DNA of 64,000 nucleotides. It comes from Minisyncoccota bacterium. Its GTDB lineage: Bacteria > Patescibacteriota > Minisyncoccia > Phycocordibacterales > XYD1-FULL-46-19. Shown here piece by piece: positions 1 to 15,658 of this stretch (the stretch's first letter is position 1; each line of letters starts with the position of its first letter). The DNA lies in the NCBI GenBank assembly GCA_041657405.1, contig JBBABX010000001.1:12152-76151 (forward strand). The letters are read 5' to 3'. Made by a program: the position numbers and the translations under genes. The notes beneath the pieces were generated by a model that was not told where the DNA came from, did not search any database, and worked only from the letters and a program-made list of their open reading frames with translations.

Positions 1-129
1 AAAAATTCTTTTGACTGCAAAAGGTATTTCTTCTTCAATCTCACCGACTACTAATAATCCCCTTTTGTCGGGAAAAGCGGAAAGTTTTACCCAGCCAGAG
101 TTTTTTACAATTATTTCTTCTTTCTCCAT
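1..129 (-). CDS. Partial (N-terminal 43 aa) WxcM/FdtA-like cupin sugar 3,4-ketoisomerase; the gene continues beyond the window edge.
   Basis: The reverse-strand translation MEKEEIIVKNSGWVKLSAFPDKRGLLVVGEIEEEIPFAVKRIF resembles the FdtA/WxcM N-terminus (IPFxxKRxY). It heads the glycan operon. Confidence 0.35.
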   Translation of the reverse strand, partial: MEKEEIIVKNSGWVKLSAFPDKRGLLVVGEIEEEIPFAVKRIF

Positions 130-138
130 AAATTTCAT

Positions 139-1653
139 TTAATGATTATTTTTTATCCAAATCAAGGAATTTTTAATTTCTTTAGTAAAACAAACATCAA
201 TAATAAACAAAAACAAACCGTAAACAAGTATCCCTAAAAGAATATAAATTAAAAGAGACCACCAAGAAAAAATCGGCCAAAATTGTTTTAAAAAATAAAG
301 ACCGTAAGCCATTGCCAAACTAGCAATAACGGGTTCAAGAGCTGTTTTAGAAATTCCCCACACTCCTAGATTTATTTCTTGACGCAAAATATAAAGCAAA
401 TATAACTGAGTAAACAATGTTCCCATTGCCACAGTTAAAGCTGTGCCTTCCCCACCAAGAAAAAAGGTTAGGGGAACAATAAAAATAATCATTGTCACTA
501 ATTGAATTGAAGAAGATCTGGTTGGAATCGACGGCCGACCAACTCCGAGAAAAAAAGAATTTGTGATTTGCTCAAAAGATTTAAGAAATCCAACCCAAAC
601 TAAAATTGTCAAAATCGGAACCATTGGCAACCAGCGAGGGCCATAAACGAAAGTTATAATTTCTCGCGCCAAAAGAAACAACCCAAAAGACGCAGGAATG
701 GTTAAGGCAAAGATTAAAGAAGTCACCCGAACATAAGTCCTACGCAAAAAGATCTTATCGTTTTGAATCTTGGCGAAAAGAGGAAATAAAATAGAACCAA
801 AAACTCTGGCAATCTCAACTGCCGGCAACATCCCAAGAGAAAAAGCCATTTGGTAAAAACCAAGAATAGTCGAGCCTAAAATTTTGCCAATTGTCAAATT
901 GTCTCCTTGCCCAATAAAAAAATTTATAATGGCAGAAATTCCTACCCAACGACCATAAAAATAAAGTTCTTTGTTTTTTTTCCAATCAACCACAAACTTA
1001 GGACGGTAGGGGTGAAAGAGATAGGATAAAATTACCGCAAAGAAACGATTGGCAATCGCACCAATAACTAAGGCCCAAACATTATGGAAAATGACAGCAG
1101 CCACAATTGTTGTCGTTATTTCTAAAATAACCACGCAAATATCAAGTTGACTTTTCTTATTAAATTGTAATTCTTTTTGCCATAAAATAACTCCTACATT
1201 TTCAAAACCAATAACAAAAACTGGTAGGGCCAAAATTCTAACCAACAACACCACCATTTCATTGTTATTAAAAAACAAGCCCACCAAAGGCGCGGTCAAA
1301 AAGAGAATGATGGCAACCAAAGTATTCCTAAGAATATTAAAAGACCAGGCGCTATCGATATATTCGTCGACATTTTCCTTTTTATGAATAATTGCCGAGT
1401 AAAAACCAGTCTGGAAAAAATTGTCAACAAGACCAAGGGCAATCGCTGCCATCCCAAACAAACCAAAATCATTTGGGAATAGCAAGCGTGCTAAAATGAT
1501 TGTTCGAACAAACTGAAGACTTTTGATAATAAAACGGCTAATTAAGATAACTAGACTGCTCTGGAAAGCTTTTTGTCCAATATTTGCATCTTTAGTTTCA
1601 AGCCATAATTTTTTAAACTTTTTAGTCAAATTTATTTTTTGAAAAAATATCAT
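139..1653 (-). CDS. Polysaccharide transporter (PST/Wzx, MOP superfamily) flippase.
   Basis: A 504 aa polytopic membrane protein with an N-terminal RLLxPxDFGL motif typical of the PST family, in glycan-cluster context. Confidence 0.65.
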   Translation of the reverse strand: MIFFQKINLTKKFKKLWLETKDANIGQKAFQSSLVILISRFIIKSLQFVRTIILARLLFPNDFGLFGMAAIALGLVDNFFQTGFYSAIIHKKENVDEYIDSAWSFNILRNTLVAIILFLTAPLVGLFFNNNEMVVLLVRILALPVFVIGFENVGVILWQKELQFNKKSQLDICVVILEITTTIVAAVIFHNVWALVIGAIANRFFAVILSYLFHPYRPKFVVDWKKNKELYFYGRWVGISAIINFFIGQGDNLTIGKILGSTILGFYQMAFSLGMLPAVEIARVFGSILFPLFAKIQNDKIFLRRTYVRVTSLIFALTIPASFGLFLLAREIITFVYGPRWLPMVPILTILVWVGFLKSFEQITNSFFLGVGRPSIPTRSSSIQLVTMIIFIVPLTFFLGGEGTALTVAMGTLFTQLYLLYILRQEINLGVWGISKTALEPVIASLAMAYGLYFLKQFWPIFSWWSLLIYILLGILVYGLFLFIIDVCFTKEIKNSLIWIKNNH

Positions 1654-1694: not shown

Positions 1695-3284
1695 TTATTT
1701 TTTTCGCGCTAAAATCAAATTATTGCCACGACCTATAGGCAACCAAATATCCAAAAAGCAAAGTAGATTATAAAAAGGCATTAAGATAATATTCAGACGA
1801 TCTCCCAACTTCTTGCCTCTAAGCAAAAATTCAAACTCCCAACCGAGAGTCCCCCAAAAAGTGAAGGTGTGGCGGGAAACAAGGATTTCAAGATTTCTTT
1901 CTTTCATTTCCTGTTTTAATTCATCTAGAACCGGTTGCTCGCCCAAGTGTTCGTCTGATTCCCAATCGTGAAATCGTTGAAACCATCTCCTTGGGAAAAT
2001 ATGTATAGACGTTTTATCGCATGGGATTGCCAAGTAGATAAGACCAGAGGGTCTCAAAGCTTCAATCAAATTAGTAATCACTTTTTTGTTATCAACAATA
2101 TGTTCAAGAGTATCAATGGAAACAATCAAATCATAGATATTTTGCTCTCTAAAATTTTTTAAATCAAAAACTTTGAAACACAGATTTTTATTTGGATAAT
2201 TTCCCCACTCCTCATCTTCTAAAATATCAATTCCCAAGACTGAAGCAGAAGGATAATAGTCAGCCAATAATTTTGAATATTTTCCATGTCCACAACCAGC
2301 ATCTAAAATATTTTTAAAATTATTATTTTTTTTATTTAGAATCAAAAAACGGTTAAAGTATTTTAATCTAAGCAATGTCCCAAAATGTATTGGGCGGAAA
2401 AATTTAGATTGTAAAATTTTTTGTTTTGACTCTCTAATCTTCGCCCACAAAAAATGAAATGTATATCTAATTTTTTTGTCTTGACGCCACGCTTTAACAA
2501 AATAATCGGCGGCTAAACTAAACTTGCCATTTTGACGATACATTAATCCCAACCAAAAATATTGTTTTGCCAATAAAATTGGATGTAAGAGATATTCCTG
2601 AAAATGTTTTTTAATTAACATTTCTCGACCTCTTATTCGACGTTCAAGATTTCCTCCAATATGTTCATCAGTAGAAAAATTATTCATAATAACTAGGGGT
2701 TCATTAAGACCGATGCCTTTATATTTTTGGGTTAAGCGAATAATCAATTCCGCCTCTTGATGGCTGGGAAAATTTTCATCAAAACCATTAATTTCTTCAA
2801 AAGCTTTTTTCTTAATAATTAAAGTTGAAGTTAAAAAACCTTTAAACCTAGTTAACGAAATTAAATGGTAATCATTTGTCCCAGCAAAAACTTCCGTGTT
2901 AAATTTCCCCTTTTCAGAACAATTTATCACGCCGGAAAAACAAAAACCAACATCACTCGAAGAGTTACTTAAAAGAGAAATTTGTTTTTCTAATTTACGG
3001 TCAATCCAAGAATCGTCATCATCCAAAAAAGCCAAGAGTTGACCCCTCGCTAGAGAAGCCCCCCTATTCCGAGAGGCCGCCGCACCAAGACTTGTCTTAT
3101 TTTGATAATAAAAAATCCGAGAATCATTAAAAGATTTGACAATCTCCTCGGCTCTGGCAATTAAACCATCATCAATAACAATAATTTCAAAGTCTTGAAA
3201 AGTTTGATTAAAAACTGACTTGATAGCTTGAGATAAAATATCCGGCCGATTATGGGTCGGGATAATAACCGAAACCTTTGGCAT
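1695..3284 (-). CDS. Bifunctional GT2 glycosyltransferase (N-terminal) and class I SAM methyltransferase (C-terminal).
   Basis: The N-terminus VSVIIPTHNRP...FEIIVIDDG...DDDDSW is GT2 (DXD). The C-terminus ILDAGCGHGKYS is methyltransferase motif I. Confidence 0.7.
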   Translation of the reverse strand: MPKVSVIIPTHNRPDILSQAIKSVFNQTFQDFEIIVIDDGLIARAEEIVKSFNDSRIFYYQNKTSLGAAASRNRGASLARGQLLAFLDDDDSWIDRKLEKQISLLSNSSSDVGFCFSGVINCSEKGKFNTEVFAGTNDYHLISLTRFKGFLTSTLIIKKKAFEEINGFDENFPSHQEAELIIRLTQKYKGIGLNEPLVIMNNFSTDEHIGGNLERRIRGREMLIKKHFQEYLLHPILLAKQYFWLGLMYRQNGKFSLAADYFVKAWRQDKKIRYTFHFLWAKIRESKQKILQSKFFRPIHFGTLLRLKYFNRFLILNKKNNNFKNILDAGCGHGKYSKLLADYYPSASVLGIDILEDEEWGNYPNKNLCFKVFDLKNFREQNIYDLIVSIDTLEHIVDNKKVITNLIEALRPSGLIYLAIPCDKTSIHIFPRRWFQRFHDWESDEHLGEQPVLDELKQEMKERNLEILVSRHTFTFWGTLGWEFEFLLRGKKLGDRLNIILMPFYNLLCFLDIWLPIGRGNNLILARKK

Positions 3285-3286
3285 AT

Positions 3287-4318
3287 TTAGCTATTTATAA
3301 CATTTTTTAGCAAATTTTCCAATTTATCCGTTTGCTCCTCGCAACTCGGAAAATTTTTAACAAAATCCAAACCATTAGCAACAATTTTCTGACGTAGTCC
3401 ATTATCACTAACTGCTTGACCTAACTTATTTATCAATCCTTCTAGGTCACGTCGCGGTGCAACCAAAGCCGTTTGTTCATCAAAGGCGTAGTCCCGATTA
3501 CCACCGTTATCATAAGTAACAACCATCGAACCACAAGCCATCGCCTCTAACGGTGGCATCCCAAATCCTTCATCCCAAGATGGACAAAGAAAAATATCAC
3601 AACTTGAATAAATTTCGGCAAGTTTTTTTTGCGGTGGATTAAAGTAGTATTCATCACAAATCTCTGGTTTTTGACCGCGAACTCCAAACATTACTAACTC
3701 CAATTTTAAACTAGAAAACTTTTCTTTCACCGCTTGATAAGCTTTCAACCCATCTTTTACCCCTTTCCAAGGATAAGAATGGTTCAACATTAAAACCCTA
3801 ATTTTGCCAGTTTCTTTCTTAACAGGAATTGGTTGAAAAAGATTTTTATCAAGTGGCTCTAGAAACAGAGCTCCTTCTTGCCCGAAGTCTTTCCGTAAAA
3901 TATTTTTTAGCCAAGTTGAAACAACCACTTTCTTAGTAGGTGCGGCGTAAACCTTGGAGACTTCTTCAGATTGACCATGATACAAGCGTTCATCATGTTG
4001 AATAAATTGAATTTTTCGACCAAATTTTTCAGGCAAAGTTAAAACAAACTGACCCACTTGCCAAGAATCACCCACTACAACATCAGCTTTTGACAAATAT
4101 TTTGGAGACCATTTCGGCAAGAATTTAACTTTTGCTTCTAAGGGGCCAAACCAACGCGGCTCTTTATACCAAATTTTTTGCCAACGCCGGAAAAATCTTC
4201 TTTCCGTAGTTGAAATTGTAACCTCGTAACCACGTTTACCCAGAATATTAGCATAAGACAAAATTATCCGAACCCCGCCAGAAATCTTCAAATGAGGCAA
4301 TAAAAAATTAATTTTCAT
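3287..4318 (-). CDS. GT1/GT4-family glycosyltransferase. The start is placed at the internal MKINFLLPHL; the ORF track extends further upstream.
   Basis: Carries the E-x7-E region FGMPPLEAMACGSMVV typical of GT4. It overlaps the upstream methyltransferase gene by 11 nt. Confidence 0.65.
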   Translation of the reverse strand: MKINFLLPHLKISGGVRIILSYANILGKRGYEVTISTTERRFFRRWQKIWYKEPRWFGPLEAKVKFLPKWSPKYLSKADVVVGDSWQVGQFVLTLPEKFGRKIQFIQHDERLYHGQSEEVSKVYAAPTKKVVVSTWLKNILRKDFGQEGALFLEPLDKNLFQPIPVKKETGKIRVLMLNHSYPWKGVKDGLKAYQAVKEKFSSLKLELVMFGVRGQKPEICDEYYFNPPQKKLAEIYSSCDIFLCPSWDEGFGMPPLEAMACGSMVVTYDNGGNRDYAFDEQTALVAPRRDLEGLINKLGQAVSDNGLRQKIVANGLDFVKNFPSCEEQTDKLENLLKNVINS

Positions 4319-4961
4319 TTTTTTTGAGTTTGACAATAAATTGATAAACAAACAAACCAGGCCAAATTTTAGCCAACAAAAAGGTTCCTCTTGTTGGGAT
4401 ATGATGGGCCGTTTCAATAATTCTAAAATTGGTCTTCTCCACTAATTGACGTAGGCTCCGCCAGGAAAAAAAATGAATATGTCCACGATCCATCAGGCCC
4501 TCTTTTTCATATTCAAAATGTCCCATCAAAATTTTTAATCGATTTCGCCAAAATAACAAATTAGGCACCGTAATAATAATATCTGTTTTTTCATCACTTA
4601 TTTTTTCCAATTTTAACAATAATTCTTCTGGCCAAAATAAATGTTCTAAAACTTCAGAAATAACAATTTTTTTGAAATGTTTTTGTCTAATTGACTCTGG
4701 CCAATTTGCAAAAGGTTCTTCTAAATTAAAACAAAAAACTTCTGACAAACGTTTCTTGGCCTCAGCGCAAAGATGAGACGAAAATTCCAAGCCGCTGACC
4801 CTCACATTCTTTTCTTTGGCAATAATCTCACCCAAATAACCAGGGCCACAACCAATATCTAAAACCTCATCAACTAAGTCATCACCCAGAAGACGCAGGA
4901 TAGCCTCTCGGCGAGAACGATTGATTTTTTTATAAGTAGCGTTTTCGTAATGATGATTCAT
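4308..4961 (-). CDS. Class I SAM-dependent methyltransferase.
   Basis: Motif I LDIGCGPGYLG and a 217 aa Rossmann-like methyltransferase fold. Confidence 0.7.
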   Translation of the reverse strand: MNHHYENATYKKINRSRREAILRLLGDDLVDEVLDIGCGPGYLGEIIAKEKNVRVSGLEFSSHLCAEAKKRLSEVFCFNLEEPFANWPESIRQKHFKKIVISEVLEHLFWPEELLLKLEKISDEKTDIIITVPNLLFWRNRLKILMGHFEYEKEGLMDRGHIHFFSWRSLRQLVEKTNFRIIETAHHIPTRGTFLLAKIWPGLFVYQFIVKLKKNEN

Positions 4962-6049
4962 TGTAGAAAATTTTTGATAATTTCAATTTGTCGTTCCCGA
5001 CTAAAATCTTTTTTTATAGCTTCTTTGGCACGCTCGCCAAGATTTCTAAATTTATCTGGATATTTGCAGACTTCCATAATTTTTTGAGCCAAATTTTCCG
5101 CATTTGCTAATTGACAAAAAACTACCTCACGACCGTCTTGAAAAAATTTATCCATCTCCTGATTTCTGCCAGTTAAAAGAATTTTTCCACAAGCCATTGC
5201 TTCAACCATTTTATTGGGGACTACTCTCCTAGCTTTATCGGTCCCACCAAAAATTCCGAGACAAATGTCGGCCAAATTAACGTAACCAAATAATTCTTCA
5301 TAATCAATAGCCGGAAGAAAAGTGACATTGGTTAATTTTAATTTTTCCGCCAATTTGAGCATTTGTTTTTTTGTTTGTCCACTTCCAATCAAAGTAAAAT
5401 GAACTCTTTCTTCATCTCGCAAATAATTTGCGGCTCCAAGAATATATTCTACACCCTGAAGCGGAATATAGTAACCCCAAAACAGAATATGATATTTGCC
5501 CTCCAAAAAATTTTCTCTGGCTTTGGTCTCTTTTTGGCAAAGATTATCTAAATCAGCCCAATCAACCGCAACTGGAATAACTAAAAATTTTTTATTTTTT
5601 ACCTTGGTTAGATGAAAGGTTTTTATAAAATAATTCTGATGACCAAGAGTGTCAAAAATTAAAATATCACTCACCCAACAACTAAGCCAATCTATAAGAT
5701 AATAATAGATCGCCTTTAAAGAATATCGGCTAGTCAATTGTCGGTCATTAACATAAGTATCAAAAATGGAAATATGAGCATCAAAAATAATTTGCCCATG
5801 ATAAAAAATCCTAAATATCAATACTGGTAACACAAAAAATTGCGCAACTTGCATTACCAAAACGTAATCCTTTCCCCAACCATAACGGAAAAGTCGCCAA
5901 GCAAAGCGCCAAACTCGCCAATGATCATTAGGAATTTCTACCAATTCAGCATGGGTGCAATTTTCCCAAGCGTCAATAAAAACTTTTTTTCGTGAATAAT
6001 CACCAAAAACCGAACCTATAATCAAAAGACTTTTTTTATTATCACTCAT
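4958..6049 (-). CDS. GT1/GT4 glycosyltransferase. The start is placed at MSDNKKSLLIIGS.
   Basis: Carries VEAMACGKILLTG. The upstream stop overlaps its start in an ATGAGTGA arrangement. Confidence 0.6.
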   Translation of the reverse strand: MSDNKKSLLIIGSVFGDYSRKKVFIDAWENCTHAELVEIPNDHWRVWRFAWRLFRYGWGKDYVLVMQVAQFFVLPVLIFRIFYHGQIIFDAHISIFDTYVNDRQLTSRYSLKAIYYYLIDWLSCWVSDILIFDTLGHQNYFIKTFHLTKVKNKKFLVIPVAVDWADLDNLCQKETKARENFLEGKYHILFWGYYIPLQGVEYILGAANYLRDEERVHFTLIGSGQTKKQMLKLAEKLKLTNVTFLPAIDYEELFGYVNLADICLGIFGGTDKARRVVPNKMVEAMACGKILLTGRNQEMDKFFQDGREVVFCQLANAENLAQKIMEVCKYPDKFRNLGERAKEAIKKDFSRERQIEIIKNFLQ

Positions 6050-7865
6050 AGAAATAATTATAAATTTTTTGAGCCCGTTTGTCCCAAGAATATTGGAGAA
6101 CATCCCCCTTGGCTTGAGATACACGTTTTTGAGATACCAGGGGCTCAAAAAAAATAAGTTTTATTTTTTCAATTAAATCTTTTTCATTTCCCGCTTCAAA
6201 AAACAGGCAACTTTGTTCAGTTAAAATTTCTTTTAGACTTGGCAAACTAGAAGCGACTATTGGTACACCACTAGCCATATATTCAAACATCTTAATTGGT
6301 GAGGTATAAAACTCAGACTCAAGAGAGACGGGTTTATTGGGTAAAACTAGACAGTCGGCAGCCTTTAAATAAAAAGGGATATTTTTTTTATCAATCCGAC
6401 CAATTAAGAAAATATTTTTTAATCCACCAATCTCAACAATTCTATGATATTTTTCAAGATCTTGGTCTGTCCCTCCAACCAAAACAAAAATCCACTCTTG
6501 GGGAGCAATTTTAGCTGCTTGAATTAAAGTATCAACTCCCTTCCAATGATAGAGATGTCCGACATACATAATTATCTTTTTATCATTTGGCAAATTTAAA
6601 TCTCGACGCAAGATCGAAACGTCTTCAACAAGGTTAGAAAAAGAGGATAAGTCCACTCCATTAGGCGCCACTAAAATTTTTTTAAAACCACGTTTGATAA
6701 ATTCCTTAGCTGTTCCCTGCGAATTACAAACTATCCCGTCTGCTTTAGAAATAAAATATTGGAAAAGATTGTTTTTACTAACAGGCCAAAAATGAGCCTC
6801 AAAAAAGGTTTTGTATCCTTTCTTCTTGAATAACCAAACAATTTCCGGTTGACGAGAAAAAATAATCGCTCCGCGTTTAGGCTTTTCTCTCCAAAGCCTA
6901 ATTAGAAAAAATAGGGATTGGAATCCAAAAGCTACACGCCCCAAAAATCGACTATATTGAATAAAATCAAAAGATTTAATTTCTCTTACAACAAAATTCT
7001 TCTCCAAATGATAATAAGAAAATAAATCCTGCTTGATTTTATTAAACCGTTTAGAATGCCACAGTTCCACAACTAGACCAAGTCGTGAAAATTCTTCACA
7101 CATCTTGGCAATTTGAAAACCATGAGCTTTTTCTGTTGGCAAACGATGATTAGCAATAAAAATTATCTCATCGCCAAAAGATTTATTTTTCTTAAGAAGA
7201 AAATGAAATGTATCCCAATAAAAAAATCGAGATCCTCGATAAATAAGAAGAAGTAACCAGCTAAGAAATTTGGGTTGGATTTTTTTTAATCGCAATTCTC
7301 TTATATCAATTAAAGAAAATCCTTCGGATTCGGCTAATTTTTGGAAATCCAGACGAGTAAAATAATGCATCTCGCTTAATTTTTGCCTATCTATGACATC
7401 TCGATATTTTTTTTGTTTGCCAATCAAATCAAGAATTTTTTCAGCCCAACAACGCGGCAACCAATTTATAAGATAAAGATGATAATGGCTATCATAAAAA
7501 CCAAAACGGTTTGGCACACTAACATATATACAACCTTGAGGTCTTAAAACTCGAAACATTTCTTGAAGGACAAGTTTTGGATTCTCGACATGTTCAATAA
7601 CTTCAGCCAAATTTATAAAATCAAATTCAAGAGAAGGAAAAGGCAATTTTTCGGCTTGCCCCTGAAAGATGTTTATCTTAATCCCCCTTTCCCCAGCAAG
7701 GACTCTCGCTTGAGAAATTTTTTGAGGGTTTAATTCTAACCCGATCGCCGAATACCCTCTCTTGACACAAGCTAAGAGAAATTTACCAAATCCCGAGCCT
7801 AAATCTAAAATTTTTTTATTAGCTAGACTTCCAATATTTTTTTCTAAATTATCAATATGATCCAT
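6042..7865 (-). CDS. Fusion protein: N-terminal class I SAM methyltransferase and C-terminal GT1/GT4 glycosyltransferase.
   Basis: The N-terminus LDLGSGFGKF is methyltransferase motif I. The C-terminus FEYMASGVPIVASSLPSLKEI is the GT4 signature. Confidence 0.7.
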   Translation of the reverse strand: MDHIDNLEKNIGSLANKKILDLGSGFGKFLLACVKRGYSAIGLELNPQKISQARVLAGERGIKINIFQGQAEKLPFPSLEFDFINLAEVIEHVENPKLVLQEMFRVLRPQGCIYVSVPNRFGFYDSHYHLYLINWLPRCWAEKILDLIGKQKKYRDVIDRQKLSEMHYFTRLDFQKLAESEGFSLIDIRELRLKKIQPKFLSWLLLLIYRGSRFFYWDTFHFLLKKNKSFGDEIIFIANHRLPTEKAHGFQIAKMCEEFSRLGLVVELWHSKRFNKIKQDLFSYYHLEKNFVVREIKSFDFIQYSRFLGRVAFGFQSLFFLIRLWREKPKRGAIIFSRQPEIVWLFKKKGYKTFFEAHFWPVSKNNLFQYFISKADGIVCNSQGTAKEFIKRGFKKILVAPNGVDLSSFSNLVEDVSILRRDLNLPNDKKIIMYVGHLYHWKGVDTLIQAAKIAPQEWIFVLVGGTDQDLEKYHRIVEIGGLKNIFLIGRIDKKNIPFYLKAADCLVLPNKPVSLESEFYTSPIKMFEYMASGVPIVASSLPSLKEILTEQSCLFFEAGNEKDLIEKIKLIFFEPLVSQKRVSQAKGDVLQYSWDKRAQKIYNYFYE

Positions 7866-8481
7866 TTTTCAATTTATTAATGATTGCTTCTACCAATTCC
7901 TTAGGTGATTTTTCCGAATTAAAAATTTCAAAATTTACCCCCGACTTGTTAAGAACACTTTTGGCTGAAAGATAATTTTTTTCGCTAGCTTCGCGCCAAA
8001 TTTCCACTTGTGATTTAGGAAAATCTTCCCTGACACCATAGCCTCTTCGGGCTAAGCGTTCTTTCCTTTTATCAAAAGATAATTCTAAAACTACTAAAAA
8101 CTCCGGATAAATAAAATTTTTTAAATAACCAATAAAAAAATCAGCAGTTTTTGGTTCGCCAAAAACTGAAAGAAGGTTCTGAAAATAGCCCTGGTCGATA
8201 ACAGCATTTGAAAATCTTTTTGCTTTTTGATATTTAGCATTATGGATGACGAAACAATTCATAAATTTGTAGTAAAAATCTTTCCAAGCCACAGAAGCAT
8301 TTATAATATAAGAAAGACCTTTTATAAATTTTAGAGGGTGTTTTAAAAAAAATAAGATATTATAAAAAAACCACTCACGCCTAGTATTAATCCTAACTAG
8401 AACAAAACCATTTTGTTCAGCCAATAATTTAGAAACTGTCGTCTTACCAGTAGCTGGTAGACCAAAAAATTCAACAATCAT
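7852..8481 (-). CDS. P-loop NTPase (kinase/sulfotransferase-like) of unknown specificity.
   Basis: Walker A FFGLPATGKTT near the N-terminus; about 200 aa. Embedded in the glycan operon. The start may be the upstream ATG at 8511. Confidence 0.4.
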   Translation of the reverse strand: MIVEFFGLPATGKTTVSKLLAEQNGFVLVRINTRREWFFYNILFFLKHPLKFIKGLSYIINASVAWKDFYYKFMNCFVIHNAKYQKAKRFSNAVIDQGYFQNLLSVFGEPKTADFFIGYLKNFIYPEFLVVLELSFDKRKERLARRGYGVREDFPKSQVEIWREASEKNYLSAKSVLNKSGVNFEIFNSEKSPKELVEAIINKLKNGSY

Positions 8482-9202
8482 CTTTGGTAAATTTAAAACA
8501 ATAAGATTCAACCAAAAAACGACTAATCAAACCAAATTTGCGCCCAACCAATAATTTTCCAAACAATTTATCAAGCATCAAATTTTTCAAAAGAGGCACG
8601 GTTACCGTCACTCCGTAAGGACCCGAAACTTTAAAACCGGCTTGAACCAACAAAGTTTTTAATTTAGTCGGTAAAATTTGCCCTTGATGAATTTGCGGCA
8701 CTTTTTGCCTTTTAAGGCGGTAAAAAAGATAGCGCGGATTTTTCGTAATAATAACACCCAAACTTCCAAATTTTAGAAGATCAAAAATTTTTTTCACAGC
8801 TAAATTTTTGTCTGGCAAATATTCCAAAGCCCGAGATGAAAAAAAGAAGTCAAACTGACACTCCGGCGCAAAACTCATAAAGTCAGAGAGAACAAAATTA
8901 AGAGAATCCGAATCGGAAAGATTTTGTTTGGCCAAAGAGAGCATTTCATTGGAAATATCCACCAAAGTAAAGTTCGCTCCCGACTTTTTGTCTAGAAAAA
9001 ACTTAGTCCAAGTCCCTGGCCCTGGACCAAATTCTAGGTAATTAGAAAAAATAAGATTCTGATTTAAAAAAACTTTTTCAAGCGCTTGCTTGGTCTGATC
9101 ATAACCAAGTTTTGCTTGGTCATCTTTAAACCAACGCCAAAATTCATAATCTGAAAAAAACTTTTCTTTGACTTGCTTGTCGTAAATCTTTTCGAAATTC
9201 AT
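8471..9202 (-). CDS. Class I SAM-dependent methyltransferase.
   Basis: Motif I LEFGPGPGTWT. Confidence 0.6.
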   Translation of the reverse strand: MNFEKIYDKQVKEKFFSDYEFWRWFKDDQAKLGYDQTKQALEKVFLNQNLIFSNYLEFGPGPGTWTKFFLDKKSGANFTLVDISNEMLSLAKQNLSDSDSLNFVLSDFMSFAPECQFDFFFSSRALEYLPDKNLAVKKIFDLLKFGSLGVIITKNPRYLFYRLKRQKVPQIHQGQILPTKLKTLLVQAGFKVSGPYGVTVTVPLLKNLMLDKLFGKLLVGRKFGLISRFLVESYCFKFTKDDC

Positions 9203-9216: not shown

Positions 9217-10251
9217 TTAATTCAAACTAGTTATTAATTTTTCGACAAGCAATTTAAGACCGTGATGTCTTGCAACATAATCTTGAAGTTCTGAAACTAA
9301 TTTTCTTTTTTCAGCCGGAGCTAAACCCAAAAGTTCTCTTAATTTTTTGGCCAAATCAACAAAATCATCTTCTTCAAAAATTAAGCGATCGTCAATTTCC
9401 CCAATTAAATTCTGGTTGCAAACCAGGACCAAACAACCACAGGCCATTGCTTCAAAAATTGTTTTGTCATACATCCCGCTTGAGCTAAGATTAACAAAAA
9501 TTTCGTGACTGCGATAGATTTTAGGCGCCTGATGGTTTGTCACACCAGCATAAAAAGTAAGATTATCGACTAAGATTGAATCTGCAACATTTTGTTTTAA
9601 GGTTTCTGCCCAAATCTGATTATCCGGCAAATAATCACCATAAAAACTAACTTTAAAATCTACCCTATCTTCAGCTAACAATTTTAGGGCTGAAATGAAA
9701 ATATCTGGTTTTTTGACAGGAGCCAAACGCGCTAAAAATAAAATTTTTCCAAGACGAAAATCATTATTTTTTTCAAGCGAATTAAAAAAACTCAAATTAA
9801 TCCCGACCGGCATAAGAATATTCTTTTTAAATTTTGCGGTGTATGAATAACGCGAGGTGCAAAAAATTTTATGACAAAGAGCAACTGCTAAATTAGTTAA
9901 ACAATTACCAGCATGATGATTTCGCCACATTGTAATTTTTTTGCCCATAAGTCGCCACCAACAACCTGCTAATAAAACATACTCCTGATTCATATGCACA
10001 AAAACTGTGTCATAGTTTTTTCGTTCCTGCCAAAGATATTTATAAAAACGCCAAATATATTTAAATTTCGATTGCCCTTCTTCTTTGCCTAGTGACAGCA
10101 CCTTAACCCCTGATAAATCATATTCGCCCTTCTCTAAACAGATAATTGTCATCTGTTTAACATGTTCAGCAAATTCTTTTAACCAACCATGGAAAAACCC
10201 TAAAATTGGGTCATTTTTATCGACTTTTTGGGTGATAATTAAAAGCTTCAC
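9217..10251 (-). CDS. GT1/GT4 glycosyltransferase.
   Basis: Carries FEAMACGCLVLV in a C-terminal GT-B domain. Confidence 0.65.
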   Translation of the reverse strand: MKLLIITQKVDKNDPILGFFHGWLKEFAEHVKQMTIICLEKGEYDLSGVKVLSLGKEEGQSKFKYIWRFYKYLWQERKNYDTVFVHMNQEYVLLAGCWWRLMGKKITMWRNHHAGNCLTNLAVALCHKIFCTSRYSYTAKFKKNILMPVGINLSFFNSLEKNNDFRLGKILFLARLAPVKKPDIFISALKLLAEDRVDFKVSFYGDYLPDNQIWAETLKQNVADSILVDNLTFYAGVTNHQAPKIYRSHEIFVNLSSSGMYDKTIFEAMACGCLVLVCNQNLIGEIDDRLIFEEDDFVDLAKKLRELLGLAPAEKRKLVSELQDYVARHHGLKLLVEKLITSLN

Positions 10252-10282
10252 AAAATTATTTTAACATAAAAATATCCAAACA

Positions 10283-10310
10283 AACGCTTCAGACGGATGA
10301 TGGAACGTTT
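10283..10310. repeat. Copy 1 of a 28-29 nt imperfect-palindromic motif, aaacgcttcagacggatgatggaacgttt. The second copy is at 58072..58100.
   Basis: Near-identical sequences (27 of 29 nt) appear at the two loci in the same plus-strand orientation. One lies downstream of a minus-strand gene and the other downstream of a plus-strand gene. Confidence 0.5.
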
Positions 10311-10411
10311 AAATCGTTATTTTTAGCCAATTTTTAGAAAATTTTTTGTTTTATTGAGACGTCTTTTCCTCGATTTTTAAATAAATTCTTAAAAATAATA
10401 ATTTCTGCCTC

Positions 10412-11527
10412 TCAAACCAAAGTTTTGGCATATTTTTCCAAATATTCTTCTTTGTCAGTGATAACTTGTTTAGAAAGTTCCTCTTTCAGCTTCTCGGCAA
10501 GTTTAACCAATTGAGTCCTATTATTAAAAGCCCAAAGAATCTTTTCACTCAAACATTCTTCATTAACAATCGGACAAATTAAACTATTGTTTTCATTTAA
10601 AATCTCCCCGACAATACCCACGTCCGTTGTCAAAATCGGACAAGAAGCTTGCGCCGCTTCTATAAATGTCCGACCGTAGCCTTCGTAGTTAGATGTAAGC
10701 AAAAAGAGATCAACCGTTTGATAATAAGCCAATAAATTATTGTTCCATTTTTCTAAGACAACATTTTCATTCAGATTCAAGCGCAAAATTTCTTTTTCAA
10801 TCTTTTTCTGTTCTGGCCCATCACCCACAATCACTAGCCCAATCCGCGGATTAGTTTTTATCACCGACGCTAAAGATCGCAAAGCCAGTGAAAAATTTTT
10901 TTCTCGCGTCAATCTTGAAGCCATCAAAATCACAAAATCAAATTGCGGATATTTTTGATGTAAATTTTCTGTTATGATCCTTGGATTAGAATATGGAGAC
11001 ACAAAAATCGGCAAGACTACTGGTTCAGTTTTGAGTAATAAAAACGCCAACGATTGTTTAATTCTTTCTGAAACCACACGCACGCTATTCGCCTGAGGCA
11101 AAAGTTTTCTGGCCAACCAAACTCTGATTTTATTTTTTAGCGACTCACGTTCAAAAAAAGAGCTAAAGGCATCCGTGTGAAGTTGAAAATTCAACTTGAT
11201 GTTGAATCTTTTTGCCAAAAACCAGCCCGCCAGACCAGTTTCAAATGGGTCTTGGCAAGTAACAACCCCAAACCTATCGTTCCCGCCTTTTAAAACTTTT
11301 CGTCCAACTCTAATCGCACTCCAAACGTAAAAAAATGATGACAAACTGTTTGTTGGATAAGCCCGACAATTTGAAGCAATTTGCGTTTCCTTAAATTTAT
11401 CTACCTTTTTGGCGAATACAACAATCTCCAGTTGTTCAAATAATCTAGCATAATCAAACATTCGTGCTCGGACCGCACTTTTTTCTTCAAAAATTTTTCG
11501 ATCGGTTGAAATCATTAAAACTTTCAT
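10412..11527 (-). CDS. GT1/GT4 glycosyltransferase.
   Basis: Carries EGYGRTFIEAAQASCPILTTDVG. Confidence 0.65.
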   Translation of the reverse strand: MKVLMISTDRKIFEEKSAVRARMFDYARLFEQLEIVVFAKKVDKFKETQIASNCRAYPTNSLSSFFYVWSAIRVGRKVLKGGNDRFGVVTCQDPFETGLAGWFLAKRFNIKLNFQLHTDAFSSFFERESLKNKIRVWLARKLLPQANSVRVVSERIKQSLAFLLLKTEPVVLPIFVSPYSNPRIITENLHQKYPQFDFVILMASRLTREKNFSLALRSLASVIKTNPRIGLVIVGDGPEQKKIEKEILRLNLNENVVLEKWNNNLLAYYQTVDLFLLTSNYEGYGRTFIEAAQASCPILTTDVGIVGEILNENNSLICPIVNEECLSEKILWAFNNRTQLVKLAEKLKEELSKQVITDKEEYLEKYAKTLV

Positions 11528-12657
11528 TTGTTTTTAAGTTCTAGTGTTAAAATTAAATTTTCCAGCATTTTGTCTTTGGTAAAAGTTGTTTCCACATATT
11601 TTTGAGACATTTGCCTTTGCAATTTTTGTTCCAATGTCATTTTTAACAAATTTTTTATCGCCTCAACTAGGCTTTCTTTGTTATTATACTTAAACAGTTG
11701 ATCTTTGCTTTGAATTAATTCTGGATTACCACCAGTATCAGTTACCAGAGCAATTGTGCCAAGACTCATTACTTCAAGTAATTGGTGAGAAAATCCTTCA
11801 TAAGCAGTATTGAGCACAAAAAGATCAGCCGCCTTCAAATATTTGGAGAGTATCTCTTTATTTAGTTGACCAAGATATTTAACAAATTCAGATAAATTAT
11901 TTTCACGAATTACTTTTTCTAAATTGTCTTTTTCTGGACCACTACCAGCAATAAATAATTTTGCCCTCGGAAACTCCATTCTAATTTCTGGCATAATTTT
12001 TATCAACAAATCAAAACCTTTCCAAGGAACGAGGCGCCCCGCGCTAATTAAAATCTGACTTTCACCTGAACCAAGCCCTAGTTCAGCACGTACTTCTTTT
12101 TTATTTAAGATAATCTCTTGAGGTTGAAAAGCATTGTAAATCACAACAATTCTCTCCGAGTTAACGCCCCAATTGGTGACAATTTTTTTTAGGTATTCGC
12201 TCGGCACAATTATTTTTTGGGCTCGACGTGCTACAGTCAACTGAATTTTTTTTAAAATTTTTACCGCCCAAGGATAGTCACCTCTAACAGAAAAGTTATC
12301 AAGTAAATCTGTTACTCCAAAACGTTGGCAGCCTTGCTCCCAAGCATAATCACCAACAATTTTTAAAAAATATGACCGACGTCGCAAAATACAAGCAAGC
12401 ATTACCGGTAAACCGACACTAACTGGATCTTGTGCGTAAATAACCTTACTCTTTGGTATTAAATAAGAAATTCGCCAAAAATAAATTAAGTGGCGAATCA
12501 ATTTTGGTAAATGTCGCACTTCTCCAAAATTTAAAATCTTGACCGAAAAACCGCGTTTTGGTAATTCATTGTTTAAAATTTTGCTATAAGTGGCCGGTCC
12601 GCCAATATCTGGTGGATAAAGACCTGTAGCGATAAGGAGGTCATTTTTGTAAGTCAT
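11524..12657 (-). CDS. GT1/GT4 glycosyltransferase.
   Basis: Carries EGFSHQLLEVMSLGTIALVTDTGG. The 4 nt ATGA overlap with the upstream gene indicates translational coupling. Confidence 0.7.
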   Translation of the reverse strand: MTYKNDLLIATGLYPPDIGGPATYSKILNNELPKRGFSVKILNFGEVRHLPKLIRHLIYFWRISYLIPKSKVIYAQDPVSVGLPVMLACILRRRSYFLKIVGDYAWEQGCQRFGVTDLLDNFSVRGDYPWAVKILKKIQLTVARRAQKIIVPSEYLKKIVTNWGVNSERIVVIYNAFQPQEIILNKKEVRAELGLGSGESQILISAGRLVPWKGFDLLIKIMPEIRMEFPRAKLFIAGSGPEKDNLEKVIRENNLSEFVKYLGQLNKEILSKYLKAADLFVLNTAYEGFSHQLLEVMSLGTIALVTDTGGNPELIQSKDQLFKYNNKESLVEAIKNLLKMTLEQKLQRQMSQKYVETTFTKDKMLENLILTLELKNK

Positions 12658-12767
12658 AAGTTATGTATGGTTTGTAGAACTTGAAACATCAAGATAAACA
12701 AAATCAGCTTACAATTTAAAGCTTACCGTATTTAGGAAAAAAGAAAAAGTCTTGTCAGCCACTAACT

Positions 12768-13904
12768 TCAAGCAGCAAGCTTCTTAAGAATCTCCTTCAT
12801 TTGGTTAGCAATTTCATCCCAATTATATTTCTCTTTTACTAATCGTTGAGCATTGTCAATTACCCGCGCCACCAATTTACGATTATTACAATCAACAATG
12901 AACTTTATTTTTTCAGCAATTGATTCTGGCTTGCGCAATTCGCAAAACCAACCAGTTACATTTTCTTTTAAGAAATCTGGAATTCCTCCAACCGGAGTGC
13001 CAATTACTGGCAAACCAACAGCCATCGCTTCTAAAAAAGAATTGCCTAATCCTTCAGACAACGACGGCCTTACAAAAATATCAGCTCCTATTAGATAATC
13101 AAAAATTTTATTCGGCGTCACTAAACCGACAAATTCTATCCTCTTCCCCAATCCCAATTCGTCAACTAAAACTTTTAGCTTTGATTCATCCGGGCCAGTG
13201 CCAACTATTTTTAATCTAAAATTATCCGGCAAAAATTGCAAGGATTTAATCAAATCATCAACCCCGTTTTTTTTTACTAATCGTGAAGTTGTAATTATTT
13301 CCACTTCTCCATCAACTTTGTTTTCTTTTTTTAATCTTCTATTTTCAATTTGACCTGTGCCATTGGGCACAACTTCAATCGGACAAGTCGCCCCCATTTT
13401 CATAGCCCAATTTTTAAGATAAGTGGAAATAGCCTGAATAAAATCAGCTTCCCTAAACATCGCCCCAAAACGTCTTCCTAAAATTCGCGCTTTTTTCTCA
13501 ACTTCAATCAAGTCATCACCTTCCTGTAAAGTGAGCAAAAAAGGTGTCTCAGTAAGCCTTCGATAAGACAAAGCCGCCAAACCACCGAAACTGGCCATAA
13601 GCCCCCAAACAACAGAGATCTTGCGTTTTTTTAGTTTCTTAGAAGCCCAAAAACCGCCAAGAAACGCCAACATTAGTTTATCCAAAGGTGAGCCAATCCC
13701 TAAACGAAAAACTTCAATTTGACCAACTTTTTCTTGTTTGGGCAAATTTCGTTGAATCCTGGCTGTTACCAGACAAAAATTATAATCTAACAAGCGGTCA
13801 GTTATTTCTTTGACCGCCAACTCGGCACCACCAATTAGCGGCAAATAAGCTGTTGAAAAAATAAGAATCGTTTTTTGGTTTTTCATTAATTCAATAAGAT
13901 GCAA
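12768..13904 (-). CDS. GT1/GT4 glycosyltransferase.
   Basis: Carries EGLGNSFLEAMAVGLPVIGTPVGG. Confidence 0.7.
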   Translation of the reverse strand: MHLIELMKNQKTILIFSTAYLPLIGGAELAVKEITDRLLDYNFCLVTARIQRNLPKQEKVGQIEVFRLGIGSPLDKLMLAFLGGFWASKKLKKRKISVVWGLMASFGGLAALSYRRLTETPFLLTLQEGDDLIEVEKKARILGRRFGAMFREADFIQAISTYLKNWAMKMGATCPIEVVPNGTGQIENRRLKKENKVDGEVEIITTSRLVKKNGVDDLIKSLQFLPDNFRLKIVGTGPDESKLKVLVDELGLGKRIEFVGLVTPNKIFDYLIGADIFVRPSLSEGLGNSFLEAMAVGLPVIGTPVGGIPDFLKENVTGWFCELRKPESIAEKIKFIVDCNNRKLVARVIDNAQRLVKEKYNWDEIANQMKEILKKLAA

Positions 13905-13906
13905 GT

Positions 13907-15658
13907 TTAATCCAAATCAACTTTGAGCATTTTTTCTAAGACTTCTCTTGGAACTTCTTTATCTTCTTTTTGTCTTATAATTAGGGTTATCGGTTTTTCT
14001 TCTTCTTGAACATTCTTTAATAAATTTTCTTTTGCTTTTGGTTCTTCTTGGGATTTTTCTTCATCTTTAGCTTCTACCGTATTTTTTTTAAATTCTGTTT
14101 TTTCTTTTTTCTTGTCAGCAAAAATTTCTTTCAATACTGATTTCAAATCTTCTTTAGATTGATTAGACTTGGGTTTACTTTTTAAAATATTTAGAGAAAA
14201 TTTTTTAGGAACTTTGTTGTAATTATTATTAACCTTAAACTCAACTTTTTTTTCTTCAAACGTTGGTTTAATCTCATTACTTGGCTTAGGTGTTTGACTG
14301 TTGTGATTTTCTTTCTTTTTAGGTTCCTCTTTCTTCCAATTGTCTTTCCTTTTGACCGTTTCAACTATTATTTCTTCGCCGTACCAATTAACAATTTCTT
14401 TTTGAACTTGTTCACGCGATTTAGCATAAGTCTGTCTAGTATAATTAATAATGGCATCGTGATTAGATTCACCCAAAGCCACGATTGGCGGAATGGTTAC
14501 TGCCGAAAAGGGTGGCGAACCAACGCCATCAATCATTAGTGTTAGATAAATTTGGGCAAAACCCAAATTGACCAAATCTTCTTTAGTAAAAGTCGGCGAA
14601 AAGATTTTTTCTAACAATTCAGCATCAAATGGTCCAACCCGAAATGAAATAATTGAGCCAACGTTGCCAAAAACTGCGTTTCGCACCGTTTCTGGCATTT
14701 GTTCAATATATTGATGTGCAATCGTCAAACTCAATTTATATTTGCGTGCTTCTGCTAAAATATCGGCAAAAGAATCATTAACAAATGATTGAAATTCATC
14801 AACAAACAAATAAAATTGTGGCAAATGAATCAAGCTCGCCGGAGACACTTCCGCACGCGACATGGCCGCTAAATAAATTTTGGTAATAAACATTCCACCC
14901 AAAAGATTAGCATTTTGTTCGCCCAAGCGACCCTTAGATAAGTTTACAATTAAAATCTTCTTTTCATCCATCACTTTTCGTAAATCAAAATTGGATTTAG
15001 GTTGACCGATAATATTCCGAATCAACGGATTAGATGTAAATTGACCAATTTTGTTTTTAATAGCATCACCAGCTTCTTGCATATAACGTTCATTATATTT
15101 GGCAAATTCATCCACCCAAAATGATTTTACCGAGGGATCGGAAATATTATCCACCACCTTTTTACGAAAACCTTTATCCGACAACATTCGATTTACTCCT
15201 AACAAAGTAGAATTCGGGTATTCTAAAAGCGCCAATAGAGTATTGTTTAAAATATATTCCATCCGCGCTGACCAAACATCCGGCCAAATTTTTTTGAACG
15301 TAGACATCAGTCCGTTGGCAACCAAGTGACGTTGGTCTTTGCCTACATCTTCCATGATATTGAAAGCAATCGGATAATCTAAATCAAATGGCGCAAAATA
15401 GATTACGTCTTTGACTCTTTCGGTTGGCACAAAATCCAGTAAGGTTTCTGCCGACTTGCCGTGTGGGTCAATAAACGCCATCCCTTCTCCATTTTTGATA
15501 TCCTGCACTGCCATATTCTCCAACAAGGTTGATTTACCCAAACCAGTTTTCCCAATAACATAAAAATGCCTCGCACGATCTTCCGACTTAATGCCAAAGG
15601 TTGTCCGTTTGCCCCGGAAGTCTGTTTGCGCGAAGTAGTTGACAGTTTGGTTGTTCAT
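13907..15658 (-). CDS. TraD/TraG/VirD4-like (DUF87, FtsK/HerA-superfamily) P-loop ATPase with a ~150 aa lysine/glutamate-rich low-complexity C-terminal tail.
   Basis: Walker A VIGKTGLGKST near the N-terminus, followed by FIDPHG and Walker-B-like LFVDEFQ. The tail is KKEEPKKKEN... It is the first gene of the glycan operon. Confidence 0.5.
   Translation of the reverse strand: MNNQTVNYFAQTDFRGKRTTFGIKSEDRARHFYVIGKTGLGKSTLLENMAVQDIKNGEGMAFIDPHGKSAETLLDFVPTERVKDVIYFAPFDLDYPIAFNIMEDVGKDQRHLVANGLMSTFKKIWPDVWSARMEYILNNTLLALLEYPNSTLLGVNRMLSDKGFRKKVVDNISDPSVKSFWVDEFAKYNERYMQEAGDAIKNKIGQFTSNPLIRNIIGQPKSNFDLRKVMDEKKILIVNLSKGRLGEQNANLLGGMFITKIYLAAMSRAEVSPASLIHLPQFYLFVDEFQSFVNDSFADILAEARKYKLSLTIAHQYIEQMPETVRNAVFGNVGSIISFRVGPFDAELLEKIFSPTFTKEDLVNLGFAQIYLTLMIDGVGSPPFSAVTIPPIVALGESNHDAIINYTRQTYAKSREQVQKEIVNWYGEEIIVETVKRKDNWKKEEPKKKENHNSQTPKPSNEIKPTFEEKKVEFKVNNNYNKVPKKFSLNILKSKPKSNQSKEDLKSVLKEIFADKKKEKTEFKKNTVEAKDEEKSQEEPKAKENLLKNVQEEEKPITLIIRQKEDKEVPREVLEKMLKVDLD

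Follow-up and report, generated by a model that had tools for sequence, protein, structure and literature searches.

The window analysed here, a 64,000-nucleotide stretch of a Minisyncoccota bacterium genome (assembly GCA_041657405.1, contig JBBABX010000001.1, positions 12,152 to 76,151 of the forward strand), carries from its coordinate 15658 down to 1 a minus-strand gene cluster that, judging from its protein domains and their neighbourhood, probably directs the synthesis of an O-methylated heteroglycan that is assembled on polyprenyl phosphate and destined for the cell surface. The window proteins had their best relatives in Patescibacteria metagenome-assembled genomes, and the genome is that of a Candidatus Paceibacterota member (Patescibacteria, or Candidate Phyla Radiation, CPR). 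The methylated surface-glycan cluster is real and of an ordinary, well-known type; its added interest lies in a core conserved across the phylum and tightly linked to an orphan ATPase resembling type IV coupling proteins (T4CPs), which went unmentioned in the literature we searched. Domains were assigned by Pfam profile searches, and all cluster proteins were scanned against NCBIfam. Fourteen consecutive open reading frames (ORFs) make up the cluster as far as the window edge, listed here in reading order together with the widest gap between them (GT, glycosyltransferase; SAM, S-adenosylmethionine):

13907..15658, minus strand: soluble T4CP/HerA-like ATPase, 583 aa, Walker A GKTGLGKST, Walker B LFVDEF
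12768..13904, minus strand: GT4f, first glycosyltransferase, Glycos_transf_1, canonical EX7E motif (EGLGNSFLE)
11524..12657, minus strand: GT4e, second conserved core position, Glycos_transf_1, preceded by a 110 nt gap
10412..11527, minus strand: GT4d, third conserved core position, Glycos_transf_1, ATGA overlap with GT4e
10252..10411, minus strand: intergenic gap of 160 nt, occupied by an S49 peptidase gene in the closest relatives
9217..10251, minus strand: GT4c, fourth conserved core position, Glycos_transf_1, GTG start
8471..9202, minus strand: MT4, class-I SAM methyltransferase, motif I YLEFGPGPG
7852..8481, minus strand: P-loop kinase-like protein, AAA_18/AAA_33, Walker A GLPATGKTT, Arg-rich lid
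6042..7865, minus strand: MT-GT4 fusion, N-terminal class-I methyltransferase (residues 14-186) and C-terminal GT4 (~230-607)
4958..6049, minus strand: GT4b, variable region, Glycos_transf_1
4308..4961, minus strand: MT2, class-I SAM methyltransferase, Methyltransf_23/MetW-like, motif I VLDIGCGPG
3287..4318, minus strand: GT4a, variable region, Glycos_transf_1, canonical EX7E motif (EGFGMPPLE)
1695..3284, minus strand: GT2-MT fusion, N-terminal GT2 with DXD motifs and C-terminal class-I methyltransferase (residues 317-468), ILDAGCGHG
139..1653, minus strand: MOP-family Wzx-type flippase, Polysacc_synt_3 over the full profile (E = 1.7e-72)
1..138, minus strand: 5' part (first 46 codons) of an FdtA-type (FdtA/WxcM-like) dTDP-4-keto-6-deoxyhexose 3,4-isomerase, cut by the window edge

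A preliminary description of this DNA had counted seven GT4 and one GT2 glycosyltransferases, four methyltransferase domains (two of them fused to a GT), a P-loop kinase-like gene and a Wzx flippase, and Pfam confirmed each of these. Its view of the whole run as a glycan operon does not extend to the first gene (13907..15658), which encodes the T4CP-like ATPase and not a glycan enzyme. A Glycos_transf_1 domain was present in all GT4s (7/7). GT4a, GT4d, GT4e and GT4f carry the canonical E-G-x-G-x4-E motif; the variant EX7E motifs of GT4b, GT4c and MT-GT4 are not evidence of inactivity. The GTG start of GT4c was supported by homology that begins at residue 1. All four methyltransferase domains retained SAM motif I (ILDAGCGHG, VLDIGCGPG, ILDLGSGFG and YLEFGPGPG) and the acidic residue after strand 2, and they scored 1e-12 to 1e-20 against Pfam Methyltransf_11/23/25. 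They do not look like inactive Rossmann folds, and the earlier identification of these domains is supported by the motifs they keep. A simple hydropathy scan gave at least 9 hydrophobic segments for the flippase and marked the glycosyltransferases and methyltransferases as soluble throughout, except for a weak hydrophobic segment at the C-terminus of GT2-MT. A PDB sequence search with MT-GT4 matched only generic methyltransferases and GT4s.

For the kinase-like protein and the ATPase, fold searches were more informative than PDB sequence searches. The kinase-like protein, whose PDB sequence search matched the P-loop alone, gave a confident model (pLDDT 92) with deoxynucleoside, thymidylate and adenylate kinases as its best PDB matches in Foldseek (TM-scores 0.55-0.65). 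On this model it is a P-loop protein of nucleotide/deoxynucleoside-kinase fold; its family is small and confined to Patescibacteria.

The cluster is tightly packed, with overlaps or gaps of ≤14 nt at 9 of its 13 junctions. We found all of the overlaps described earlier (4 nt ATGA overlaps at 4958-4961 and 11524-11527, an 8 nt overlap at 6042-6049, ATGAGTGA, and 11 nt overlaps at 4308-4318 and 8471-8481) and, beyond these, a 14 nt overlap at 7852-7865. The description of the junctions as tiny or overlapping therefore held for 9/13, with two wide gaps of 110 nt (12658-12767) and 160 nt (10252-10411) standing against it. Every gene from 15658 to 1 does lie on the minus strand, as had been noted, but this proves little: since nearly the whole 64 kb window is minus-strand (~44/48 genes), such co-directionality is expected by chance, and the evidence for coupling is the overlaps, not the strand. 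GC content was lower in the cassette genes (34.5%) than in the other coding sequences of the window (39.3%; p = 7.5e-4), as is typical of glycan clusters. Two elements lie upstream of the ATPase gene:

15892..15925, minus strand: intrinsic-terminator-like hairpin, 15 pairs (8 G-C), then a T-run
15739..15774, minus strand: promoter-like block of ~36 nt with a perfect TATAAT at 15743-15748, ~85 nt upstream of the ATPase ATG

The hairpin terminates the preceding gene and sets a clean upstream boundary for the locus. The promoter-like block was nearly identical in the two closest relatives (L085 and L086), where the flanking non-coding DNA has diverged; sought also in more distant loci, it was found in L085 and L086 only. 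It is plausibly the promoter of a transcript that begins with the ATPase. Consensus scans of this AT-rich DNA returned 59 promoter matches across the region (52.1 ± 6.7 in shuffled sequence) and 13 terminator-like matches (12.6 in shuffled sequence), counts not above the shuffled expectation, and the hairpin at 15925..15892 was the only convincing site.

Coordinate 1 is not the end of the locus, which runs on for another ~5.1 kb. A 14.9 kb JGI contig (L081), retrieved by matching the exact flippase protein and 100% identical to the window across their 2696 nt overlap, shows the order past the edge to be full-length FdtA (148 aa, score 1.1e-40), a DegT/FdtB-type aminotransferase (371 aa, score 1.2e-110), a split GT4, a Wzy_C+TPR protein and SecA. 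Counted from the ATG of the ATPase gene to the stop codon of Wzy_C, the whole locus is ~20.7 kb long. The preliminary description had proposed looking past coordinate 1 for nucleotide-sugar genes, and its suggestion of a Wzx-dependent pathway is strengthened by the FdtA, DegT, GT4 and Wzy_C+TPR genes found there. The GT4 after DegT (L081 4197..5458) is split into ORFs of 324 and 91 aa that cover Glycos_transf_1 profile positions 13-101 and 109-171. In the Wzy_C+TPR protein (761 aa), a soluble TPR domain comes after ~12-13 hydrophobic segments (Wzy_C at residues 202-358, 4.5e-23; C-terminal TPR at ~550-660), and the protein matched the solved WaaL-type ligase 7tpg weakly. Wzy_C with a C-terminal TPR is the architecture reported for the O-oligosaccharyltransferases WsfB and PglL (PMC2943079). 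The Wzy_C domain itself is common to polymerases, ligases and O-oligosaccharyltransferases and does not tell them apart.

The genes that would prime the lipid carrier lie ~15 kb from the cluster in this genome, at the 30.5-32.8 kb position given for them previously, and two further genes adjoin them:

31470..32780, minus strand: polyprenyl-phosphate phosphoglycosyl transferase, Bac_transf (3.3e-53), probable in-trans member
30575..31465, minus strand: NAD-dependent sugar epimerase/dehydratase, probable in-trans member
32937..34124, plus strand: divergent GT4, adjoining the priming genes
29262..29783: PAP2 phosphatase, adjoining the priming genes

The phosphoglycosyl transferase scored 283.8 bits against NCBIfam EPS_sugtrans, just below the 295.55 cutoff. 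Related cassettes in L016, L033 and L038 end in '<Wzx <Epim <BacTransf >WzyC', as do those of L040 and L047 in part, and Bac_transf lies inside the cassette in L016, L033, L038 and L040. Because relatives carry them inside it, the displaced priming genes are normal members of this cassette, and the comparison supports a probable functional link of the transferase and epimerase to the cluster.

To place the locus among its relatives, we scanned species-representative genomes with MT-GT4 as query (80 loci, the 51 best matches almost all in Patescibacteria assemblies) and metagenome contigs with the ATPase as sole query (80 loci). The order ATPase, GT4f, GT4e, GT4d, GT4c, variable genes and (methyltransferase-)GT4 was found by tblastn in L006, L008, L012, L019, L026 and L037, and the same core order recurred in metagenome loci; several further first-scan loci held the core without an ATPase in range. 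Among the loci of this second scan with ≥3.5 kb downstream of the ATPase, 41/47 had a glycosyltransferase in one of the three ORFs that follow it, without exception on its strand, and three others of these 47 had Wzy_C directly after the ATPase. Summed over loci, the 444 kb downstream of the ATPase contained 204 glycosyltransferase ORFs and the 414 kb upstream contained 1. The first GT4 after the ATPase belonged to the GT4f orthogroup in 41/46 loci (~40-50% identity), and the later GT4 positions also formed orthogroups by reciprocal best hits. In three independent look-ups of distant ATPase homologues (L082-L084), MurD, MurC, DUF4015 and the ATPase were followed by glycan genes, which in one locus lie on the opposite strand; one of the three is annotated Microgenomates. 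Loci without the cassette read ATPase>WzyC>MurB>SecA. The slot is conserved across the phylum as MurD, MurC, DUF4015, [ATPase, GT4f, e, d, c, methyltransferase/GT4, variable], Wzy_C, MurB, SecA, and the window is therefore one variant of it, with a conserved core and a variable outer part. In the Microgenomates-annotated locus L083, a reverse transcriptase (RVT_1) and bAvd, typical of diversity-generating retroelements, lie between MurC and DUF4015 (6652..8446).

The closest loci, L085 and L086, share the window order through MT2 at 52-79% identity. The L085 ortholog of MT-GT4 is a GT4 alone (380 aa) without the N-terminal methyltransferase, and the GT4 part of the fusion is a member of the conserved core. 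Both loci carry an S49-family peptidase gene (8258..9085 in L085) between GT4d and GT4c, where the window has its 160 nt gap; a search of the window and L081 revealed neither a remnant of this gene nor MurB. The pair of MT4 and kinase-like genes is kept in L001, L021, L036, L085 and L086, and L043 has non-adjacent homologs. A methyltransferase gene lies directly upstream of the orthologous (methyltransferase-)GT4 in many relatives. The GT2 module is widespread in Patescibacteria, alone or fused to class-I, Methyltransf_24 or CmcI-type methyltransferases, and elsewhere also to an LPG-synthase-type membrane domain or a GT4. GT-methyltransferase fusions, which had been noted earlier, recur in this way with three unrelated methyltransferase families in other genomes, and such repeated, independent fusion argues that methylation of the transferred sugar is the selected function. 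MOP flippases were present in many related cassettes, as labelled with a second flippase probe. ORFs of ~600 aa (586-638 aa) recur in the variable region of L003, L004, L013, L026, L031 and others; of two examined, one had no Pfam match and one only weak P-loop matches, and the class has no counterpart in the window.

A secreted ORF of 440-560 aa directly follows the ATPase in 20/59 related loci, and all four that were scanned carry LTD and PKD domains (4/4: L102 12276..13763, L116 9266..10771, L134 11807..13267 and L159 2045..3574, each between the ATPase and the first glycosyltransferase). The one sequence inspected along its whole length combines a signal peptide with a Ser/Thr-rich linker and a C-terminal membrane anchor. 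The LTD-PKD protein is a candidate acceptor glycoprotein. The window holds only distant domain relatives of it, the secreted PKD/LTD-like proteins at 43259..44611 and 44633..47158.

From domain content, packing, synteny and motifs we infer the following order of steps, with its substrates and acceptor, and a single transcript. The phosphoglycosyl transferase (31470..32780) and the adjoining epimerase would prime the lipid carrier, and the eight cytoplasmic glycosyltransferases of the window, together with the split ninth past its edge, would extend the chain. FdtA and DegT are predicted from their families to supply dTDP-3-amino-3,6-dideoxyhexose. The four SAM methyltransferase domains would methylate specific residues, the two fused ones presumably acting on the product of their own glycosyltransferase; sugar O-methylation is suggested by these fusions and by context, and the motifs are intact. 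The MT4/kinase-like pair might add a further modification, possibly involving phosphate. Wzx would then flip the finished unit across the membrane, and the Wzy_C-TPR protein would transfer the glycan to an acceptor, most likely a secreted surface protein, or alternatively polymerise it or ligate it to the wall.

Several results weigh against this proposal. The NCBIfam scans of all cluster proteins gave no GT or methyltransferase match at equivalog level (matches to PglH, PglI, PglJ and all other equivalog models were far below cutoffs), and for this reason no sugar, linkage or methylation position can be assigned. The ninth GT4 is split by a frameshift, as a pseudogene or through assembly error. 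No Wzz/PCP chain-length regulator was found among the Pfam-scanned window genes or on L081, although one could be encoded elsewhere in the genome; the window and L081 likewise yielded no LCP ligase or acceptor gene, and neither RmlA/RmlB nor an N-acyltransferase for a 3-acylamido-3,6-dideoxyhexose was seen in the available sequence. The role of the ATPase is left unexplained. Finally, the two wider gaps and a -10-like element conserved ahead of GT4c mean that the locus may comprise more than one transcription unit.

At least two units, one from the ATPase to GT4d and another from GT4c onward, with a further break possible in the 110 nt gap, are a substantial possibility that falls short of being probable. 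Beyond the existence of the 110 nt and 160 nt gaps, an unrelated gene (the S49 peptidase) occupies the position of the latter in relatives, and a TGnTAnAAT before the GT4c GTG is kept between the window and L085 in a spacer that is otherwise unalignable. The element (10252..10262, TGTTAAAAT; L085 counterpart at ~9150..9171, TGCTAGAAT) ends 7-8 nt before the GTG (10251) and may serve as an internal promoter for an mRNA with little or no leader. Against a division of the locus, neither gap holds a terminator-like site, promoter- and terminator-like counts do not exceed the shuffled expectation, and read-through is compatible with an internal promoter.

In a rival proposal the product is not a protein O-glycan: a classical Wzx/Wzy route, with Wzy_C as polymerase or ligase, would yield a polysaccharide that is either free or attached to the wall, such as a secondary cell-wall polymer, a teichuronic-acid-like polymer or an exopolysaccharide (EPS). 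We regard this as possible but somewhat doubtful. The best NCBIfam similarities of the flippase and several GTs were to TuaB, TuaC, TuaG, TuaH and EPS enzymes (all far below cutoff), Wzy_C is shared by polymerases, ligases and O-oligosaccharyltransferases alike, and peptidoglycan genes surround the locus (MurC/MurD, and MurB in relatives). However, neither the window nor L081 yielded a Wzz/PCP, an LCP transferase or an export apparatus, nine glycosyltransferases are many for a single repeat unit, the C-terminal TPR fits the architecture reported for WsfB and PglL, and a secreted protein with a Ser/Thr-rich linker heads the cassette in many relatives. We favour O-glycosylation of surface proteins over a wall-linked polymer only slightly, because of the WsfB/PglL-type architecture and the secreted LTD-PKD ORFs in relatives.

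A cytoplasmic product, either a polymethylated storage or chaperone polysaccharide or a protein glycosylated before export as by the accessory-Sec GtfA/GtfB, is improbable. The GTs and methyltransferases are soluble, bar the weak C-terminal segment of GT2-MT, SecA lies just downstream of the frame, and pairs of GT4 and methyltransferase underlie the mycobacterial polymethylated polysaccharides; yet Wzx, Wzy_C and a phosphoglycosyl transferase occur in the cassette here and in relatives, pointing to a lipid-linked intermediate that crosses the membrane, and many relatives carry enzymes of the GT-C (PMT_2) and GtrA-fused types, which work with sugars on a lipid carrier. The mycobacterial methylmannose and methylglucose polysaccharides are heavily methylated glycans made by GT4-type GTs and dedicated sugar O-methyltransferases. 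These products are cytoplasmic, so that a flippase, a phosphoglycosyl transferase and Wzy_C are not needed, and we detected no orthology to their pathways.

A different reading takes the head of the locus for an anti-phage or conflict system (MADS-like, or a 'GT4 in conflict systems' type); in its favour are weak PADLOC matches (ATPase to mad8, 9.5e-14; MT4 to mad2, 9.7e-12) and secondary Pfam matches to GT4-conflict. We consider this very improbable and rejected a defence system: the PADLOC matches are generic and limited to ATPase and methyltransferase cores, the remaining MADS components are absent, and GT4-conflict scored far below Glycos_transf_1 on the same regions. A flippase, Wzy_C and sugar-nucleotide enzymes within a mur/sec frame are what one typically sees in housekeeping synthesis of the envelope, and near-universal occurrence and high conservation set the family apart from defence islands.

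The ATPase is the first and most conserved gene of the locus (54-81% identity across Patescibacteria), in a family with at least 8000 database matches and many invariant columns; the database entry that matches it at 100% identity bears the label Candidatus Paceibacterota. The hydropathy scan gave no hydrophobic segment and so no predicted N-terminal membrane anchor, an alignment of 33 homologues begins at the ATPase core, and a disordered K/E-rich tail follows from ~residue 430. Foldseek matched its model to DotL (6sz9, E = 9e-9), TrwB (1gki, E = 2e-7, target TM-score 0.57) and Cag-beta (8dol), and less well to HerA; Pfam TrwB_AAD_bind scored 1.1e-5, and in a PDB sequence search only the P-loop matched TrwB. 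Neither the annotated genes of the window nor the L082-L084 gene tables include VirB4, another type IV secretion system (T4SS) gene or a relaxase. As both the membrane anchor and T4SS linkage are missing, we call the ATPase T4CP-like and not a T4CP. We also considered it as the cell's FtsK; a complete FtsK (4TM, alpha, motor and gamma) at 53619..55871 rules this out, and with a genuine FtsK elsewhere in the window the ATPase is not the division translocase.

A 2025 survey counted 5,713 VirD4-like homologues in 2,918 Patescibacteria genomes, of which 148 lie near virB4 (PMC12102498); it states that exaptation of these homologues "cannot be ruled out" and does not mention glycosyltransferases. 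In the literature we searched, no link of Patescibacteria glycosyltransferase clusters to VirD4-like genes and no account of this placement of the ATPase was described; it otherwise notes only the many glycosyltransferases of CPR genomes and the importance of EPS genes in one Saccharibacterium. We tentatively suggest that the ATPase may be a working component of the pathway, an exapted coupling-protein hexamer that recruits, energises or exports a glycan or glycoprotein substrate. That substrate could be, again tentatively, the secreted LTD-PKD protein, and such a role is compatible with, and additive to, the surface-glycan proposal. A conserved promoter-like block of its own precedes the gene, and GT4f follows it almost without a break (a gap of 2 nt with a TTG start or 20 nt with an ATG start), and the median gap from the ATPase to the next same-strand ORF across 67 loci was 8 nt. 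Its adjacency to GT4f persists without an upstream DUF4015 (L117, L129, L136, L161 and L163), and the first downstream ORF in 59 loci was a GT4 (28), a 440-560 aa protein of LTD-PKD type where tested (20) or Wzy_C (3). The neighbourhood without a T4SS, the small share of Patescibacteria homologues near virB4 (148/5,713), the exaptation already raised for them (PMC12102498) and the presence of FtsK elsewhere in the window point the same way. Adjacency alone, however, is no proof of function: the whole MurD...SecA frame is syntenic, and a low rearrangement rate may suffice to explain it. Glycan genes are convergent with the ATPase in L082 and L138, L121, L147 and L151 keep the ATPase without an adjoining glycosyltransferase cassette, no known glycan pathway has an FtsK/HerA-type ATPase, and the gene is reported as not essential in a cultivated Saccharibacterium (PMC12102498). 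The stronger proposal, that an 'orphan' VirD4-like ATPase was exapted as the dedicated first component of a phylum-wide system for assembly and export of envelope glycan or surface glycoprotein, co-transcribed with the core of four to five GT4s, we hold to be rather unlikely; if true, it would be a glycan system driven by an FtsK/HerA-class ATPase, without known precedent.

Upstream of the cluster, a DUF4015 putative glycoside hydrolase with an N-terminal membrane anchor (16942..18174, minus strand) is flanked by two paralogous minus-strand ORFs (15947..16636, 229 aa, and 18965..19687, 240 aa; 68% identical). DUF4015 lies upstream of the ATPase in 42/53 related loci, and its protein may belong functionally to the same envelope module. 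At 56% GC the paralogs lie well above the ~38% of the genome; neither has a Pfam match, and their DNA, including ~110 nt upstream, is repeated at 75-84% identity. An AAGGAGG ribosome-binding site, which the cluster genes lack, belongs to ORF 15947..16636, and the terminator at 15925..15892 follows this ORF. Elsewhere in the window, the 16S gene (24877..26375) is unlinked from 23S-5S (36359..39672), with ~10 kb of coding sequence between them (SecDF, PAP2, FolD, the epimerase, the phosphoglycosyl transferase, a GT4 and FtsW) and a tRNA-Ile 1.1 kb downstream of the 16S gene. The 23S match of 3170 nt to a 2925-position model suggests that the 23S carries insertions. An IS200-like Y1 transposase-domain protein (47739..48428, minus strand, 229 aa, 30% GC) lies between surface-protein genes.

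Patescibacteria have genomes of ~1 Mb and live attached to host cells, a lifestyle in which surface chemistry is central, and to our knowledge almost nothing is known of their glycans. The genome studied here devotes ~21 kb to a single methylated glycan. The core gene order recurs in relatives annotated Paceibacteria/Parcubacteria and once in Microgenomates, which points to a conserved envelope component with lineage-specific decoration. Such a component could act like lipopolysaccharide (LPS) core plus O-antigen, or like an S-layer glycan, elsewhere, and the locus is a candidate determinant of host recognition. Its linkage to the ATPase gives a testable context for the T4CP-like family that the 2025 survey called possibly exapted (PMC12102498).

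Among known systems, the ATPase shares with the T4CPs TrwB, VirD4, DotL and Cag-beta a RecA-like nucleotide-binding domain with an inserted all-alpha domain and Walker A/B motifs, and like the 'orphan' T4CP homologues of Patescibacteria (PMC12102498) it is not encoded near virB4. Unlike T4CPs it has no N-terminal membrane anchor and a long disordered K/E-rich tail, and instead of a nearby T4SS or relaxase it has a consistent place between DUF4015 and the glycosyltransferase cassette.

The glycan genes resemble the S-layer glycan (slg) clusters of Geobacillus stearothermophilus NRS 2004/3a, Paenibacillus alvei and Aneurinibacillus thermoaerophilus (reviewed in PMC2943079), in which a polyprenyl-phosphate phosphoglycosyl transferase initiates and soluble GTs extend. 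They also share with these clusters a methyltransferase domain fused to a GT (WsaE), an FdtA-type supply of 3-amino-3,6-dideoxyhexose (predicted here), a Wzy_C protein with C-terminal TPR as transferase (WsfB; here a putative one), a GC content below the genome average and overlapping stop and start codons. They differ in that no S-layer or acceptor gene adjoins them in the window, in having Wzx where G. stearothermophilus has a Wzm/Wzt ABC transporter, in four methyltransferase domains where a single terminal cap methylase is known, and in lacking sequence-level orthology to Wsa/Wsf enzymes, NCBIfam matches being generic; a T4CP-like ATPase heads the locus, and the conserved GT4 core is specific to the phylum.

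The pairing of a kinase-type protein with a SAM methyltransferase in a glycan locus recalls WbdD, the bifunctional kinase-methyltransferase chain terminator of E. coli O9a (PMC3482155). Here the two activities lie on separate polypeptides with no coiled-coil ruler, the kinase-type protein has a P-loop nucleotide-kinase fold and not a protein-kinase-like domain, and the pathway is of Wzx type, not one with an ABC transporter. Because fold and pathway type differ, the resemblance is only superficial.

Bac_transf, a MOP flippase, Wzy_C, GT2s and GT4s and sugar-nucleotide genes are also the components of Wzx/Wzy O-antigen, EPS and tua clusters, and like those the cassette is variable at a conserved chromosomal site. 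The galF-gnd interval is a comparable site for variable cassettes of the Wzx/Wzy type. In contrast to such clusters, no Wzz/PCP or outer-membrane export genes were found here, the organism is a monoderm CPR bacterium without LPS, and the initiating enzyme lies 15 kb away in this genome. The density of methyltransferases is unusually high by comparison, and the cassette is not wholly variable: the gene order of its inner core is kept across classes.

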